7,441 nt of DNA from a virus (taxonomy: Duplodnaviria; Heunggongvirae; Uroviricota; Caudoviricetes): the IMG/VR virus record IMGVR_UViG_2713896784_000023; one strand, 5' to 3'. The translations under genes and the position numbers were made by a program. This document shows, one piece after another, positions 290-6,367 of this stretch. Under the pieces are notes generated by a model. That model was not told where the DNA came from. It worked only from the letters and a program-made list of their open reading frames with translations, and did not search any database. Position 1 is the stretch's first letter, and every line of letters starts with the position of its first letter.

Positions 290-481
290 TCACTCACCTG
301 AGTTTCTTTCCAGCCAGCNNNNNNNNNNNNNNNNNNNNNNNNNNNNNNNNNNNNNNNNNNNNNNNNNNTCGGTTTTAAACGTTTTGCTTTTGGTATACGT
401 CATCGCGGTGAACGTGCCGTCCTGGTTGGGGAACACGCCACATACCAGAGATTCGCTGTTGCCAAGATCGATAGTATCCAT
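290..481 (-). CDS. Hypothetical small protein, about 63 aa (MDTIDLGNSESLVCGVFPNQDGTFTAMTYTKSKTFKT...WLERNSGE), interrupted by the N-run 319-368
   Basis: ATG at 481-479 with GAGG 5 nt upstream; first gene downstream of the pL-like promoter. The track's longer version (290-586) starts at a TTG inside the promoter region and is less plausible. About 17 residues are masked. Confidence 0.4.
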   Translation of the reverse strand: MDTIDLGNSESLVCGVFPNQDGTFTAMTYTKSKTFKTXXXXXXXXXXXXXXXXXXWLERNSGE

Positions 482-3418: not shown

Positions 3419-4057
3419 ATGGGAACCGTATTGCATGCACTGAAAGCGATGGGTAAAGCCAATTCTGTTGAACTGGCGGCGCGGCTTGATATCAGCCGTG
3501 AAGAAGTTCTCAACGAACTGTGGGAACTCAAAAAAAATGGCGTTGTTGATAAAACGGGTCACACCTGGTTTCTGGCTGTCGAAGGTGAATCCGGGGTAAC
3601 CGAAGGGCAGGCACTACAACCTGAAGCGCCGGATGTGGTAACCGAAGAGGTCNNNNNNNNNNNNNNNNNNNNNNNNNNNNNNNNNNNNNNNNNNNNNNNN
3701 NNTCGTTACTGCATGCCGGGCGATAATTTACCAGCAGAGCCGAAAGCCGCGCTGGTAACGGAAAATGATGGTAAAGCCTTTCCTCAGCCAGCAGGTGTTG
3801 CGTTACCAGTCCGGGAAGCGGAAACACAGGAAGAAATGAAAACAGAAATCGTGGAAGACATTGTGAAGTTACAGCCATCGGTCACCGAAACGAAAGCAGA
3901 TGACCTGATTCTACCATCGCTGCATGTGGCTAACCGAGAGCTGCGCCGGGCGAAAAGTGATGTGCAGAAGTGGGGGCGAGTCTGTGCCGCTCTGCGGGAA
4001 CTGAACAAACACAGGGATATTCTCCGGGATATTACCGCCACCAGAGAGCAGCAGTGA
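3419..4057 (+). CDS. Hypothetical phage protein with N-terminal winged-helix-like domain, about 212 aa, interrupted by the N-run 3653-3702
   Basis: ATG at 3419 preceded by GGAGG at 3407-3411; the track's upstream extension from 3353 is less likely. N-terminal [45 protein letters not shown] looks like a MarR-type winged helix; acidic middle; C-terminal basic helix. Reading frame is continuous across the N-run. Occupies the ren/nin position after P. Confidence 0.6.
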
Positions 4058-4116
4058 GTGGCTGGAAGACGTGGTGCCGGGCTGAAATCCTGATACTCCG
4101 GTAGTGTGCGGGAACG

Positions 4117-4302
4117 ATGACAGTCGAAAGTATCGGCAGTCTGATTGGTCGTAGCGAGGCAGCGGTCAGAGCGAAAGCCCGGGATAAGGGAATAAGCCTG
4201 ATGCTGCGGGGGGATTTTCGCCTGTCAGCCAAATTACCGTATAAAGCGATGGACTGCCTGAAGCGAAACGGACTGATTGGCGCTGAGGATAGTTTACGAT
4301 GA
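4117..4302 (+). CDS. Small hypothetical protein with HTH-like segment, 61 aa
   Basis: ATG at 4117; weak GGGAA Shine-Dalgarno; SIGSLIGRSEAAVRAKARDKGISL resembles a helix-turn-helix; same strand as flanking genes. An antisense ORF (4032-4232) competes, so confidence is low. Confidence 0.4.
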   Translation: MTVESIGSLIGRSEAAVRAKARDKGISLMLRGDFRLSAKLPYKAMDCLKRNGLIGAEDSLR

Positions 4303-4382
4303 CCTGGCCTGAGGCATTCGTAACGGTAGGAGTTGCAATGGCGGTAGCGCTGGTGGTGTATTCGATTTGCCGCTGGGGTTGA
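4299..4382 (+). CDS. 27-aa hydrophobic micro-ORF (MTWPEAFVTVGVAMAVALVVYSICRWG), candidate single-pass membrane peptide
   Basis: ATG at 4299-4301 overlaps the TGA at 4300-4302 of the upstream ORF (ATGA coupling); the core VTVGVAMAVALVVYSI is transmembrane-like; immediately followed by a structured region and an intrinsic terminator. Too short for the ORF track. Confidence 0.3.
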   Translation: MTWPEAFVTVGVAMAVALVVYSICRWG

Positions 4383-4466
4383 CGTAATTACTAATCCGGG
4401 GCTATATTCACCTCACGGTCGAGTTGACCGTCGGGATTGAGACCCCGGATAGAAACCGCGACAGAC

Positions 4467-4489
4467 ACACGCCGCGAGCGTGTTTTTTA
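4467..4489 (+). terminator. Rho-independent terminator (stem ACACGC / GCGTGT, 5-nt loop, T6 tract)
   Basis: ACACGC (4467-4472), loop CGCGA, GCGTGT (4478-4483), then TTTTTTATT; GC-rich perfect 6-bp stem ends the 4117-4382 gene pair. Confidence 0.6.
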
Positions 4490-4583
4490 TTGTCGTATGC
4501 ACGCGCACATCTGAATTATGGTGGGGCGTATAGGGGAGCTGAAAAGCTCGCCGGTTGGTTTCCCGGTAGTCTCAACCCTGTAC

Positions 4584-4649
4584 GTCTCACCACCCGACGA
4601 TTGAGACCTGACGGTGGTGATAGTTTAGAAACCACCCTAGGGTGTCGTT
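4584..4649 (+). promoter_or_regulatory. Structured 5' leader of the ORF6N-type gene with mutually exclusive hairpins
   Basis: Hairpin A: GTCTCA (4584-4589) with TGAGAC (4602-4607). Hairpin B: CACCACC (4588-4594) with GGTGGTG (4613-4619). Hairpin C: GGTGGT (4613-4618) with ACCACC (4631-4636), ending 2 nt before the AGGG Shine-Dalgarno (4639-4642); palindrome CCCTAGGG at 4635-4642. A, B and C share bases and cannot all form at once. Confidence 0.35.
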
Positions 4650-5198
4650 ATGACTACTCAAATCTCTGTTGAAACTCTTGTTGCTATTACTTACAACCAA
4701 ATCCCTGTAATTACCACTGAGTTGTTGGCGCATCTTTATGGTGCAGACGTTAAGAATATTCAAAACAACTTTGCAAGGAATGTAGGGCGCTTTCAGATTG
4801 GAAAACACTTTTTTAAGATCGAAGGTGAAGAGTTACGTGAATTGAAGCACAGACCATCTTTAAGTGGGTCTGTGAAAATCGCCCGTAACGTTCGTTCCCT
4901 CATCCTCTGGACAGAACGCGGAGCAGCCCGTCATGCAAAAATGCTCGAAACCGATCAGGCGTGGGAAGTATTCGAAAAACTCGAAGACAGTTACTTCAAC
5001 CAGTACGAGAAAGAGCGGGCTATGGGAAAAATGAATATCGATTTTCACCTGGCGATCCGTGACGATAAAACCGCCTTCATCCGAAGTTATGCGCCTGGCC
5101 AGCTGGTGACGGTTGAAGAAGCCCTGGCTTTGCTTAAATCGCGCGGATGGCTGGTAATGCCACGAGATGAACTGGCCGGAAAATTAATGGAGCTTTAA
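4650..5198 (+). CDS. ORF6N/Rha-type phage regulatory protein (antirepressor-like KilA-N superfamily), 182 aa
   Basis: N-terminal NQIPVITTELLAHLYGADVKNIQNNFARNVGRFQIGKHFFKIEGEELRELK matches the ORF6N/Rha-type DNA-binding domain pattern; C-terminal part uncharacterised. AGGG Shine-Dalgarno 7 nt before the ATG. Confidence 0.7.
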   Translation: MTTQISVETLVAITYNQIPVITTELLAHLYGADVKNIQNNFARNVGRFQIGKHFFKIEGEELRELKHRPSLSGSVKIARNVRSLILWTERGAARHAKMLETDQAWEVFEKLEDSYFNQYEKERAMGKMNIDFHLAIRDDKTAFIRSYAPGQLVTVEEALALLKSRGWLVMPRDELAGKLMEL

Positions 5199-5215
5199 CC
5201 GATTGAGTTAACCTT

Positions 5216-5235
5216 GATATGGGAATTCCCATATC
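5216..5235. repeat. Perfect 20-bp palindrome GATATGGGAATTCCCATATC
   Basis: Read directly from the sequence; exactly self-complementary; lies 18 bp after the ORF6N stop codon; not followed by a T-tract. Confidence 0.9.
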
Positions 5236-5312
5236 GGGAGAACATTACCATCGGGGATAAAATGATTTGCGGGGAAAGAAGAGTTAAGTAGAATTGCTGC
5301 GGGTGCTTGAGG

Positions 5313-5348
5313 CTGTCTGCCTCGGGCATGCCGCCGTAAGGCAGACAG
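5313..5348 (+). other. Strong hairpin: 10-bp perfect stem CTGTCTGCCT / AGGCAGACAG with 16-nt loop containing palindrome GGCATGCC
   Basis: Read directly from the sequence; no adjacent T-tract on either strand, so not a canonical terminator; part of a roughly 270-bp stretch with no ORF of 60 aa or more on either strand. Confidence 0.5.
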
Positions 5349-5469
5349 AGAAAAGCCCCAGTTAACATTACGCGTCTTGCAGGACGCTTAACATTAATCT
5401 GAGGCCAATTTCATGCTTTGCACATGTAGGTTAGCCTCTTACGTGCCGAAAGGCAAGGAGAAGCAGGCT

Positions 5470-5583
5470 ATGAAGCAGCAAANNNNNNNNNNNNNNNNNN
5501 NNNNNNNNNNNNNNNNNNNNNNNNNNNNNNNNACCGGCCAGACGGAGGTCGCTGTCTTCACAGCTTACGAACCTGAGGAGTAA
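5470..5583 (+). CDS. Candidate small ORF, about 37 aa (MKQQ...TGQTEVAVFTAYEPEE), interrupted by the N-run 5483-5532
   Basis: Consensus AAGGAG Shine-Dalgarno at 5455-5460, 9 nt before ATG 5470; the frame is continuous across the 50-N mask and stops at TAA 5581-5583; a 9-bp GAAA-tetraloop hairpin follows at 5591-5612. An in-frame upstream ATG at 5413 with GAGG would give about 56 aa. Coding status unproven. Confidence 0.3.
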   Translation: MKQQXXXXXXXXXXXXXXXXXTGQTEVAVFTAYEPEE

Positions 5584-5685: not shown

Positions 5686-6003
5686 TCAGGATATTACCTG
5701 GATCCCGTTTTTCTCGACAACTGAAAGAAGCCGAAGAGCTGCACCTCCCGGGCGTTTCACTCCTCGTTCCCAGTCTGATATCAGGTTTTTACTGACGTTG
5801 AGGTATCTGGCAAAAACAGGTTGAGACAGATGCTCTCGTTCTCGCAGTGCACGGATCCTTTCCGGAGACATTACCGGCGCAGGCTGAAGACAAGTTTCAT
5901 CGAATTCGCGCATAGTTTGTTTTGTGATTGCACCGATATCATGGAGTGACTCCATCATTTCATGTACAGATGCAAGTGCATCACTGCGGTAATTTTTACT
6001 CAT
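5686..6003 (-). CDS. XRE-family HTH antitoxin (HigA-like), 105 aa
   Basis: C-terminal Cro/C1-type HTH (LREREHLSQPVFARYLNVSKNLISDWERGVKRPGGAALRLL) with an N-terminal extension, as in antitoxins partnered with RelE-like toxins; ATG at 6003-6001 overlaps the upstream toxin stop by 8 nt; GGAGG 6 nt upstream. Confidence 0.85.
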   Translation of the reverse strand: MSKNYRSDALASVHEMMESLHDIGAITKQTMREFDETCLQPAPVMSPERIRALREREHLSQPVFARYLNVSKNLISDWERGVKRPGGAALRLLSVVEKNGIQVIS

Positions 6004-6367
6004 TGGGTACCTCCGTGAACTGGCCTTGTTGAATCAATTGTGCCAGCTGTTCATCAGTAAGATTGAGGACATGGGGAGCGGCTTTTCGAAAAGCATTTTC
6101 CTCTATAGCAGTGATATTCTCTCGTTCATTCTTTGCGTATGCGTAGATGAAAAAGGCTTTTTCTGCAACGCGGTAAAAAATTATTGTCCGGTAACCGCCT
6201 GATTTTCCGCCACCACTTCGGGCTAATCTTTGTTTAATGACACCACTACCCAAATTTGCGGATATGATCCCCTTATCGGCCTGCTCCACGATTTTGCGCA
6301 GCGATTTATCGGAAATCCGATGTTTTCGGGCGAAACGTTCAAACCAGGCGTTTTTGAAAATTCGCAT
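5996..6367 (-). CDS. RelE/ParE-superfamily type II toxin (HigB-like, toxin-first operon), 123 aa
   Basis: Motifs FKNAWFERFARKHRI, LGSGVIKQRLAR and GKSGGYRTIIFYR...FIYAYAKNERENI match the RelE-like toxin family that pairs with XRE antitoxins; GAGG Shine-Dalgarno upstream of ATG 6367-6365; orientation opposite to flanking phage genes. Confidence 0.85.
   Translation of the reverse strand: MRIFKNAWFERFARKHRISDKSLRKIVEQADKGIISANLGSGVIKQRLARSGGGKSGGYRTIIFYRVAEKAFFIYAYAKNERENITAIEENAFRKAAPHVLNLTDEQLAQLIQQGQFTEVPNE

Follow-up and report, generated by a model that had tools for sequence, protein, structure and literature searches.

A probable P1 immI/IsrK-type antisense RNA module precedes an ORF6N antirepressor gene in a lambdoid prophage

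How the expression of an ORF6N-domain gene is controlled from its leader is the question raised by positions 4383-4649 of a 7,441-nucleotide stretch of Caudoviricetes DNA (IMG/VR record IMGVR_UViG_2713896784_000023; hereafter the window, which contains three 50-nt N-masked runs). The first-pass annotation had read this region as a riboregulator-like leader with alternative hairpins and a duplicated structural module. All of the sequence strings and complementarities it listed were found to be exact, and its reading is partly right: this is an RNA element that regulates the ORF6N gene and has alternative folds of nearly equal energy, as borne out by a C4 match, covariation and fold energies, but it would act via a trans-acting antisense RNA. 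We consider it very probable that positions 4379-4649 form a complete antisense RNA module of the P1 immI or IsrK type that controls an ORF6N antirepressor gene. The locus is a typical representative of the phage P1 c4/Salmonella IsrK family, a kind of device already known, and its most likely role is the silencing of a prophage antirepressor gene by a C4 RNA encoded between copies of its own targets. The anatomy of the region, its family membership, its conserved structure, the three-way covariation of its recognition words and its orthology to known loci were established in this analysis.

The regulated gene and its setting

The gene downstream of the region and its Shine-Dalgarno (SD) sequence were located as follows:

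4639-4644, + strand: SD AGGGTG of the ORF6N gene, assigned from the sequence and aligning with the SD of relatives
4650-5198, + strand: putative ORF6N-domain antirepressor gene (182 aa), ortholog of Gifsy-1 AnrP

The encoded protein matched Pfam ORF6N (E 3.7e-19) and, over its full length, PHROG 2379 'anti-repressor' (E 4.5e-81), and was found to have 112 of 186 aligned residues in common with AnrP/STM2616, with the same N-terminus. The downstream genes of related loci are annotated Ant, and the controlled gene is, by annotation, a putative antirepressor. A scan of 596 Gb of genome contigs with the pattern CGGGATTN{62,92}ATGGTGGG detected C4 in 0 of the 100 loci screened; the pattern was too loose and gave chance matches in unrelated phyla. 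At the module locus an RNA gene is absent from RefSeq, and several GenBank phage records place hypothetical-protein coding sequences over the RNA.

Promoter, short RNA and terminator

The 5' part of the region consists of a promoter and a short transcription unit:

4379-4408, + strand: sigma-70 promoter of the module (-35 TTGACG at 4379-4384, 18-nt spacer, -10 TATATT at 4403-4408)
4415-4489, + strand: IsrK-like short RNA, a leader with a1 and b1 that stops at a terminator of its own; isrK RF01394 match and ortholog of Gifsy-1 IsrK
4415-4431, + strand: leader 5' hairpin, ACGGUCG-AGU-UGACCGU, which includes the CGGTC/GACCG helix
4467-4489, + strand: intrinsic terminator (stem ACACGC/GCGTGT, loop CGCGA, U-run), assigned from the sequence and with an equivalent in P1

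The promoter, which matched at 10 of 12 positions, was the sole promoter-like site within 4000-5300, and its predicted transcript start is A4415. Positions 2 (A) and 6 (T) of its -10 element were at least 90% conserved among 59 loci, and it aligned both with the P1 promoter P1c4 (P51b) and with the isrK promoter of Gifsy-1, where the mapped +1 aligns with 4415. Positions 4415-4488 matched the isrK covariance model (RF01394) at 52.4 bits against a cut-off of 50, and the layout is that of isrK, with two 5' hairpins and an intrinsic terminator directly after the promoter. The outer pairs of the equivalent leader 5' hairpin were 93% paired with covariation, and the a1 hairpin described below was paired in 98.7% of cells (59 loci each). 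The terminator that the first-pass annotation had marked at 4467-4489 is real: its U-tract (4484-4487) was at least 90% conserved in the 59 loci, and both the minimum-energy fold and the centroid retained the hairpin. Partial read-through of the terminator has been demonstrated in Gifsy-1 (Hershko-Shalev 2016).

C4 antisense RNA

A C4 RNA was identified downstream of the terminator, with the following parts:

4514-4597, + strand: C4 antisense RNA, full-length match to Rfam RF01695
4519-4535 with 4576-4592, + strand: C4 basal stem, 17 bp, from the minimum-energy fold
4536-4549, + strand: C4 hairpin 1, GAGCT-GAAA-AGCTC
4550-4567, + strand: C4 hairpin 2, with an 8-nt loop

The match to RF01695 scored 70.5 bits against a cut-off of 45 and covered model positions 1-87 of 87; P1 itself scored 68.8 bits. 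The minimum-energy fold (-44.2 kcal/mol, z-score -5.9) was the Rfam structure. Covariation in related loci had been suggested as a check on the leader, and it bore out the fold: the C4 stems were paired in 94-100% of cells across 59 loci (94.1% for the basal stem, 97.3% for hairpin 1, and 100% for hairpin 2), with many compensatory changes, including 10 of the 17 basal stem pairs and all five pairs of hairpin 1. The last of these is the GAGCT-GAAA-AGCTC tetraloop hairpin of the first-pass annotation, in which the dominant structure, the 17-bp basal stem, was absent. The RNAalifold consensus of C4 contained 27 pairs, eight of them compensatory. C4 and isrK were the only Rfam families matched above curated cut-offs; c4-a1b1 (RF03163) was sub-threshold (26.2 bits versus a cut-off of 46.7) because the 5' hairpin differs in the subfamily of the window. 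P1 was not recovered by BLAST with the Rfam C4 consensus as query, and its C4 coordinates were taken from the GenBank annotation.

Mature C4 is predicted to span 4520-4594, with RNase P cutting between U4519 and G4520. The AUUAU/GG junction at this point and residues C4591, C4593 and C4594 (the stem end and CC tail) were each at least 90% conserved in the 59 loci. For P1, secondary citations describe a C4 RNA of about 77 nt whose 5' end is made by RNase P from a longer precursor. In P1 and P7, ant is repressed by C4.

Recognition words and three-way covariation

Two short words in C4, a' and b', were found to have complements on both sides of the RNA:

4432-4447, + strand: a1 hairpin with stem CGGG/CCCG, whose 8-nt loop AUUGAGAC displays a1
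4437-4443, + strand: a1 target word TTGAGAC, exact 7-nt complement of a'
4452-4457, + strand: b1 target word GAAACC, which complements b' of the C4 loop
4556-4562, + strand: b' word UGGUUUC, exposed in the hairpin 2 loop (8 nt) of C4, with no partner in the minimum-energy fold; complements b1 and b2
4569-4575, + strand: a' word GUCUCAA in the single-stranded C4 junction, likewise with no partner in the minimum-energy fold; complements a1 and a2 exactly
4601-4607, + strand: a2 target word TTGAGAC, 7 nt past the predicted C4 3' end
4628-4634, + strand: b2 target word GAAACCA, 4 nt 5' of the SD and at -22 to -16 from the start codon

The order of parts is therefore promoter, a1, b1, terminator, C4 (b', a'), a2, b2, SD and antirepressor gene, which matches P1 immI, and both order and spacing agree with the annotated P1 locus. 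In the window, a':a2 and b':b2 are exactly complementary over 7 nt each, and the duplex energy of a' is -7.6 kcal/mol with a1 and likewise with a2. These energies are for the short words; RNAduplex on whole RNAs yielded uninformative full-length pairings.

Exact complements of a' and b' were present at conserved distances upstream and downstream of C4 in nearly all of 61 unique modules. Among 59 loci, 19 different a' and 45 different b' words occur, in 52 combinations, yet a change in an a or b word is matched at all three of its sites. A match of at least 7 nt was found for cognate versus non-cognate pairs in 98% versus 3.3% (a'-a2), 90% versus 3.3% (a'-a1) and 88% versus 3.9% (b'-b2), and a match of at least 6 nt in 78% versus 22% (b'-b1). 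The a and b words constitute a specificity code, and each phage may have its own version of it. The b2 word overlaps the SD in P1 and most relatives, whereas in the window it ends 4 nt upstream, and direct occlusion of the SD is therefore less certain here.

The three-way relationship also changes how the duplicated module is to be read. The 10-mer GATTGAGACC does occur twice (4435-4444 and 4599-4608), and the copies are those of a1 and a2, targets of C4. The duplication alone is not significant: chance would give a window about one 10-mer pair within 200 nt, and some 22 pairs are actually present here. It becomes meaningful only because the reverse complement of the word, at 4569-4575, lies between the copies, a point absent from the first-pass annotation, and because all three co-vary in relatives. 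Most of the 10-mer pairs of the window are iteron-like repeats at 2100-2400; Tandem Repeats Finder reported no repeats in the window.

Additional and alternative helices

Two further helices were examined through these arms:

4394-4401, + strand: 5' arm ATCCGGGG of a long-range helix, exact complement of 4443-4450
4613-4620, + strand: conserved element GGTGGTGA, which can pair with the C4 3' strand and tail at 4587-4594

The three mutually exclusive helices that the first-pass annotation had placed before the SD had different outcomes. Helix 4588-4594/4613-4619, here extended to 4587-4594/4613-4620, is conserved and backed by covariation. Across 59 loci it was paired in 86.9% of cells, with compensatory changes in 7 of 8 pairs and 43 double-change cells versus 12 +/- 6 in shuffles, and pairing fell to 35-68% when the partner was slid. 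This helix excludes the C4 basal stem and would put a2 in a hairpin loop. Helix 4584-4589/4602-4607 was paired in 57.8% of cells (59 loci), which is the background level, and is a coincidence of the a2 word of the window, since relatives with other a2 words keep the C4 3' strand. Helix 4613-4618/4631-4636 is present in close relatives and, family-wide, did no better than shuffles (mean P 0.34). The nested helix upstream is exact and its arms co-vary, and it is held at a fixed position (at least 7 bp) in 48% of 58 loci, P1 included, where the counterpart is CGTTCAGGC/GCCTGAATG. Its 4394-4401 arm sits between the -35 and -10 elements of the module's own promoter and is therefore present only in RNA started further upstream. 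Neither helix 4587-4594/4613-4620 nor helix 4394-4401/4443-4450 was described in the Rfam models or literature searched.

Two conformations of the read-through RNA in the window are nearly isoenergetic, (i) the C4 fold at -75.1 kcal/mol; and (ii) the cis pairing of a1b1 with a'b' at -74.0 kcal/mol. They correspond to the Gifsy-1 ortholog's structures A and B, which have been shown experimentally, with two conformers on native gels (Hershko-Shalev 2016). Given the conserved, covarying helices 4587-4594/4613-4620 and 4394-4401/4443-4450, conformers formed in cis probably matter.

Comparison with known systems

In layout the module resembles immI c4 of P1 and P7: in both, a1 is displayed by a hairpin loop and followed by b1 and a hairpin resembling a terminator; C4 has three helices, with b' in the hairpin-2 loop, a' in the junction, an A-CC tail and GG where RNase P is predicted to cut; a2 comes just past the C4 3' end, and b2 adjoins the SD of the antirepressor operon. 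The words differ (P1 versus window: a, TTGACAG versus TTGAGAC; b, GTTAGTG(A) versus GAAACC(A)), as do the placement of b2, which in P1 overlaps the SD and in the window lies 4 nt upstream, the antirepressor (Ant1/2 versus an ORF6N protein) and the host element (plasmid prophage versus lambdoid chromosomal prophage). A C1 operator is not evident in the window, unlike P1. In P1, icd lies between b2 and ant with translational coupling, whereas in the window the SD and ATG of the ORF6N gene (182 aa) come immediately after b2, with no icd; C4 would therefore act directly on the antirepressor gene. Functionally the locus would resemble immI, although strictly speaking it is no immI operon.

The direct ortholog is the isrK-STnc1160/'orf45'-anrP locus of Gifsy-1 (217 of 285 aligned nucleotides, with promoter, +1 and terminator in common), and its AnrP is 60% identical to the ORF6N protein of the window. 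The Gifsy-1 intergenic region scored above cut-off for isrK, c4-a1b1 and C4 alike. The published IsrK:orf45 pairs of Gifsy-1, G28-C162 and G31-C159, which were proven by experiment, map exactly to a1:a', and 'orf45' begins at the C4 AUG; the equivalent pairings, a1:a' and b1:b', are complementary by sequence in the window. Differences are found in the words (Gifsy-1 versus window: a, TTGGCGT versus TTGAGAC; b, TCACCG versus GAAACC), in the C4-internal ORF (45 aa and overlapping the anrP start, versus 28 aa and ending 45 nt before the gene), in the position of the module (after antQ, versus after replication genes), and in the published model, which does not treat STnc1160 as a C4-type repressor.

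CI RNA of P4 and sar of P22 were also compared. P4 CI RNA (seqA/seqC) is likewise a small RNA, cut from the leader of the very operon that it regulates, with target copies on both sides, but it acts by premature transcription termination and belongs to another fold and sequence family, to which the window gave no Rfam match. In the immI region (sar/ant) of P22, an antisense RNA likewise limits antirepressor synthesis in a temperate phage; sar reads across the ant ribosome-binding site from the other strand and is thus cis-antisense in the full sense, whereas the regulator in the window is on the same strand and would act via two short loop-exposed words.

Proposed mechanism

By analogy, the regulatory steps known from P1/P7 and Gifsy-1 would also operate at the window locus. 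Transcription from the 4379-4408 promoter would start at about 4415, and most transcripts would end at 4467-4489, giving an IsrK-like RNA of about 75 nt with a1 in a hairpin loop and b1. Transcripts that read through would include C4 and the mRNA, and by homology to P1, RNase P would free C4 at G4520 as a stable RNA of about 75 nt. In trans, C4 would pair with a2 and b2 just 5' of the SD, and this pairing would block ribosome loading on the antirepressor gene and keep the prophage repressor safe. The a1/b1 copy would compete for the C4 words, either from inside the precursor, in cis, or once free as the short RNA, and would therefore have an anti-antisense or decoy role; when the short RNA is abundant, C4 would be titrated and the antirepressor made. 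A caveat to this C4 model is that the host prophage may be defective.

In Gifsy-1, the short IsrK pairs with a' and raises anrP translation more than 100-fold (139- to 171-fold in trans), a' mutants derepress anrP, and the stable RNA STnc1160 arises by processing downstream of IsrK (Hershko-Shalev 2016). Point mutants of a1 in cis also derepress anrP, by 23- to 55-fold (Hershko-Shalev 2016), which is not predicted by a pure decoy role of a1 and suggests a further effect of cis a1:a' pairing, on the folding of the precursor or the maturation of C4. We tentatively propose, as possible rather than probable, that IsrK is the P1 a1/b1 leader and a decoy for C4 (= STnc1160), and that both conserved helices, the C4 3' strand with GGTGGTGA past a2 and the promoter-spacer arm with the a1 3' flank, make the read-through precursor a conformational switch. 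If so, the switch would choose between C4 release and display of a2 in a hairpin loop according to transcription start site, and the published 'activation' by IsrK would be relief of C4 repression at a2/b2.

Alternative explanations

The authors of the Gifsy-1 work attribute activation to translation of orf45 and not to C4 (Hershko-Shalev 2016). In the equivalent model for the window, the read-through RNA would fold silently, the IsrK-like RNA would open the ribosome-binding site of the ORF at 4518, coupling would activate the antirepressor, and C4 would be no repressor. Stop- and start-codon mutants of orf45 lower activation in Gifsy-1, where 30S footprinting and native-gel conformers are also consistent with it (Hershko-Shalev 2016); the AUG in the C4 5' strand (4518) is conserved in most loci, and the nearly isoenergetic conformations of the window would suit this model as well. 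Yet the stop codon of the 28-aa window ORF, at 4602-4604, lies 45 nt short of the ATG at 4650, and coupling by overlap is therefore impossible. Across loci the C4-internal ORF ranges from 14 to 64 aa (14 aa in P1), is open-ended, or is without an AUG (8 loci), and the IsrK authors themselves noted that nucleotides are conserved and amino acids variable in orf45. A conserved peptide from the C4 AUG was rejected, as neither its length nor its presence is conserved. Moreover, the model leaves the co-variation of a2/b2 with a'/b' in 88-98% of loci unexplained, and the a1+a' double mutants of Gifsy-1 did not regain repression (224 and 327 units versus 4; Hershko-Shalev 2016); we regard it as quite improbable for this locus. 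Transcriptional autoregulation through a1/b1, comparable to that through seqA for P4 CI RNA, in which C4 on the nascent leader would alter read-through of 4467-4489 and set the C4 and mRNA levels by feedback, is compatible with the C4 module and only rather unlikely. The 3' end of b1 is 9 nt from the terminator stem, at least 90% of loci, P1 among them, conserve the terminator, a transcriptional fusion in Gifsy-1 rose 8-fold with IsrK in trans, and the IsrK authors had raised the possibility of feedback termination and noted a resemblance to P4 (Hershko-Shalev 2016). Counter to this, constitutive STnc1160 left IsrK-mediated toxicity unreduced in Gifsy-1 (Hershko-Shalev 2016), and no alternative helix overlapping the terminator was found in folds of the region.

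The first-pass annotation favored a purely cis-acting leader, in which exclusive hairpins would serve attenuation or translational switching and the duplicated module would bind a protein or RNA polymerase, for instance as a put-like element. The proposed helices do exist, and 4587-4594/4613-4620 and the upstream nested helix are conserved with covariation. All three helices before the SD, however, lie at least 95 nt downstream of the terminator stem (4467-4483), and as they do not overlap it, they cannot make up a terminator/antiterminator attenuator. The duplicated words complement a third copy in C4 and all three co-vary (59 loci), whereas a protein site would not require a third copy; no put-like Rfam match was obtained, helix 4584-4589/4602-4607 is a coincidence, and helix 4613-4618/4631-4636 lacks support beyond close relatives. 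This reading is thus highly improbable. Equally hard to credit is an inactive relic of a defective prophage that regulates nothing. The prophage does carry the cryptic-prophage-type genes dicB, ydfB/C and hokD, with a truncated pseudogene just upstream of the module, which favors such a reading; but all parts of the module are intact, from the promoter (10/12) and the perfect complements a1, a2, b1 and b2 to a C4 that scores 70.5 versus 68.8 bits for P1 and a full-length ORF, and similar modules occur in 674 of 5,426 complete E. coli genomes.

Significance

The practical gain of assigning this region to the C4 family is a correct annotation of the locus. Beyond the known anatomy of such modules, two conserved helices (4587-4594/4613-4620 and 4394-4401/4443-4450) are pointed out. 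The comparison suggests that the Salmonella IsrK and P1 C4 systems, which are handled separately in the literature searched, are one mechanism, with IsrK activation amounting, we infer, to relief of C4 repression. Furthermore, the two-word a/b code, with its 52 combinations in 59 loci, would set which prophage's C4 silences which antirepressor, and may thus bear on how the many lambdoid and Stx prophages of enterohaemorrhagic E. coli cross-talk and are induced.

Identity of the RNA element and of the regulated gene

The whole window was scanned against Rfam, and three relevant matches were found 5′ of the ORF6N gene (4650..5198, + strand): the C4 antisense RNA (RF01695), at full length at 4514-4597 with 70.5 bits (cut-off 45); isrK (RF01394), a short terminated leader RNA, at 4415-4488 with 52.4 bits (cut-off 50); and c4-a1b1 (RF03163) at 4402-4451, which at 26.2 bits was below its cut-off of 46.7. 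A lambdoid prophage of E. coli O157:H7 matches the window at 100% identity; its RefSeq annotation includes the ORF6N gene and no RNA. The encoded protein was found to match PHROG 2379 ('anti-repressor') over its full length (E-value 4.5e-81) as well as Pfam ORF6N, and homologous DNA in Stx phages, other lambdoid phages, and APSE-1 was always located directly upstream of an annotated antirepressor Ant gene. Modules of similar kind were detected in 674 of 5,426 complete E. coli genomes. In deposited phage genomes, protein-coding genes labelled 'hypothetical protein' or 'putative phage regulatory protein' are annotated across the IsrK/C4 region (loci L002, 2984-3223; L124, 1114-1287; L127, 953-1786); these are probably mis-annotations.

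The identical O157 record was matched by BLAST in four pieces with shifting offsets, because three runs of 50 Ns mask parts of the window (319-368, 3653-3702, and 5483-5532). Elsewhere in the window, a hok/sok type I toxin-antitoxin locus was detected at 5301-5475 (+ strand; sok RF01794, 117 bits; RefSeq gene name hokD), with a partly N-masked hok ORF at 5413-5583; downstream of hokD, RefSeq places a RelE/ParE-family toxin gene and a helix-turn-helix antitoxin gene in the identical record (5686-6367, − strand). Iteron-like direct repeats at 2175-2372, inside a DnaT-like/O-type replication gene, comprise a unit of about 19 nt (AAAGAnnCCCAAAAACGG) present four times and a second unit, CAAAGACACCCAAA, present three times; they are probably the prophage replication origin.

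Anatomy of the module and comparison with P1

The features of the module, in which C4 carries the words a′ and b′ and the target copies are a1/b1 upstream and a2/b2 downstream, are as follows.

4379-4408, promoter (TTGACG, 18-nt spacer, TATATT)
4437-4443, a1 (TTGAGAC), in the loop of a CGGG/CCCG hairpin
4452-4457, b1 (GAAACC)
4467-4489, terminator
4514-4597, C4
4556-4562, b′ (TGGTTTC), in the hairpin 2 loop
4569-4575, a′ (GTCTCAA), in the junction
4601-4607, a2 (TTGAGAC)
4628-4634, b2 (GAAACCA)
4639-4644, Shine-Dalgarno (SD) sequence (AGGGTG)
4650, start codon (ATG)

The strings and complementarities listed in the first-pass annotation were all exact, and the terminator that it had marked was also recovered by a consensus scan. 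The promoter is the sole sigma-70-like site within 4000-5300 and aligns with the −10 of the P1 promoter P1c4. Two small ORFs that share an ATGA overlap precede it, at 4117-4302 (61 aa, PHROG 30109; a truncated pseudogene according to RefSeq) and 4299-4382 (27 aa, hydrophobic), with the stop codon of the latter overlapping the −35. In the dominant structure, which the first-pass annotation had missed, a 17-bp basal stem (4519-4535 with 4576-4592) encloses two hairpins, GAGCU-GAAA-AGCUC at 4536-4549 and another at 4550-4567; the 84-nt C4 segment folds at −44.2 kcal/mol (z-score −5.9 versus shuffles). A conformer in which a1b1 pairs in cis with a′b′ was nearly isoenergetic in the window (−74.0 kcal/mol, versus −75.1 for the C4 fold).

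Our comparison with P1 rests on the GenBank record annotation of the immI locus, which includes promoters, a1, b1, C4 RNA, a2, b2, icd, and ant. The layout was found to be identical and the words different: in P1, a1 lies in a hairpin loop, a′ (CTGTCAA) in the C4 junction, b′ (TCACTAAC) in the hairpin 2 loop, a2 after the C4 3′ end, and b2 against the SD. Because of this shared layout, the two copies of the 10-mer GATTGAGACC were assigned to a1 and a2. Unlike P1, the window has no icd gene, its b2 stops 4 nt short of the SD instead of overlapping it, and its antirepressor is of a different family. The isrK model also recognized the P1 leader (35 bits), in a match that takes in a terminator-like hairpin.

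Covariation of the specificity words

About one 10-mer repeat with copies no more than 200 nt apart is expected per window by chance; evidence that the pattern exceeds chance is weak from the window by itself but decisive from the comparison across loci. Eight modules were aligned, a C4 covariance model was constructed, and with it 64 further C4 copies were found in viral contigs. In nearly all of the 61 unique modules, exact complements of 6-8 nt flanked a′ at about 75 nt on the upstream side and 1-9 nt on the downstream side; the complements flanking b′ lay at about 60 nt and 29-39 nt, respectively. When cognate and non-cognate pairs were compared at a threshold of at least 7 nt, matches were found for a′-a2 in 98% versus 3.3%, a′-a1 in 90% versus 3.3%, b′-b2 in 88% versus 3.9%, and b′-b1 in 51% versus 5.9%; the 19 a′ and 45 b′ words occurred in 52 combinations. 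Such three-way covariation is predicted for an antisense RNA that acts in trans through two recognition words. The duplication noticed in the first-pass annotation is therefore real, its copies being complementary to a′ and covarying with it, but the proposed protein- or RNA polymerase-binding role is disfavored since such a site would not give three-way covariation. Likewise, the reading of the leader as a riboregulator with alternative folds was retained, while attenuation and a put-like element gave way to antisense pairing.

In a 59-sequence alignment, the C4 basal stem was 94.1% paired (compensatory changes in 10 of 17 pairs), hairpin 1 97.3% (5 of 5 pairs), hairpin 2 100%, and the a1 hairpin 98.7%; the terminator U-tract and key −10 positions were at least 90% conserved. 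In some viral contigs (L084, 9709-11108; also L039, L041, L015, L055, L074, and L089), complete C4 modules follow one another as tandem pairs or triplets spaced by about 656 nt; the a/b words differ from module to module, and every module has a short downstream gene of its own.

Alternative helices

Of three mutually exclusive helices suggested before the start codon, one was found to be conserved. This helix (4588-4594 with 4613-4619), extended to 4587-4594/4613-4620, was 86.9% paired with compensatory changes in 7 of 8 pairs and 43 double-change cells (12 ± 6 in shuffles). In it, the C4 3′ strand pairs with an element that follows a2. The helix is mutually exclusive with the C4 basal stem, is not in the Rfam models, and would put a2 into a hairpin loop, like a1. 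The helix of 4584-4589 with 4602-4607 was paired at the background level (57.8%) and is a coincidence, because relatives with other a2 words retain the same C4 3′ strand. The third (4613-4618 with 4631-4636) was present in close relatives and not above shuffles across the family. An upstream nested helix (4394-4401/4443-4450) of at least 7 bp was found at a fixed position with covarying arms in 48% of loci, including P1 (L128, 8210-8218 with 8263-8271). Because the promoter spacer contains its 5′ arm, it can form only in RNA begun further upstream, from P2c4 in P1 and presumably by read-through from the early operon in the window, which implies a function in such transcripts. The first-pass observation was partly confirmed and its interpretation partly supported.

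Comparison with Salmonella Gifsy-1 IsrK

The 273-nt antQ-anrP gap of Gifsy-1 (NC_010392) matched isrK (79 bits), c4-a1b1 (48 bits), and C4 (69 bits). Between this locus and the window module, 217 of 285 aligned nucleotides are identical, as are 112 of 186 residues between AnrP and the ORF6N protein, which have the same N-terminus. Numbered from IsrK +1, G28 and G31 are in a1 (TTGGCGT), C162 and C159 in a′ (ACGCCAA), and A107 is in the AUG in the C4 5′ strand; therefore, the published 'helix b-I' corresponds to a1:a′ plus b1:b′, and 'orf45' overlies C4. STnc1160, a stable processed RNA, is very probably C4. Near-isoenergetic conformers are common to Gifsy-1 (reported) and the window (computed). 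In Rfam, isrK belongs to no clan and c4-a1b1 to clan CL00128; their matches overlap in the window (4402-4488), P1 (L128, 8218-8312), and Gifsy-1 (L249, 34240-34329), and by these overlaps the two families appear to describe one element.

Mechanism

The best-supported reading is the P1 mechanism, which was established for P1 and P7 in 1990-1995. C4 would be released from a read-through transcript, and its a′ and b′ would pair with a2 and b2 to block antirepressor translation; the a1/b1 copy upstream of it, present chiefly as the short terminated RNA, would compete for C4, so that activation by IsrK would be anti-antisense. RNase P processing of C4 is known for P1. In Gifsy-1, the IsrK study found that a fraction of transcripts passes the IsrK terminator, that short IsrK in trans raised anrP translation 139- to 171-fold, and that a′ mutants derepress.

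The published model of coupling through orf45 is less favored, at least for the window, where the ORF from the C4 AUG has 28 aa and stops 45 nt before the gene; across loci this ORF is not conserved, being 14-64 aa, open-ended, or absent. The Gifsy-1 a1+a′ double mutants also speak against coupling, as they stayed derepressed (224 and 327 units versus 4); under the P1 mechanism this failure is expected because a′ must match a2 too. However, a1 single mutants in cis derepress, which disfavors a pure decoy role of a1 within the P1 mechanism, and cis pairing probably also influences precursor folding or C4 maturation. In one subfamily (L084, L127, L118, and related loci; promoter TTGATTCT...), the reading frame opened by the C4 AUG lacks a stop codon and is continuous with that of the downstream gene.

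The element is already known, its family being in Rfam, and the locus is a typical representative, distinguished by its own a and b specificity words. C4 and isrK are already catalogued for E. coli O157 EDL933, and both RNAs have been noted together in APSE phages. In the literature searched, IsrK and C4 were handled separately: the IsrK paper likens IsrK only to P4 CI/seqA, and a 2025 review has the two as separate entries. A modest gain would lie in uniting IsrK with C4 and in the two conserved helices.
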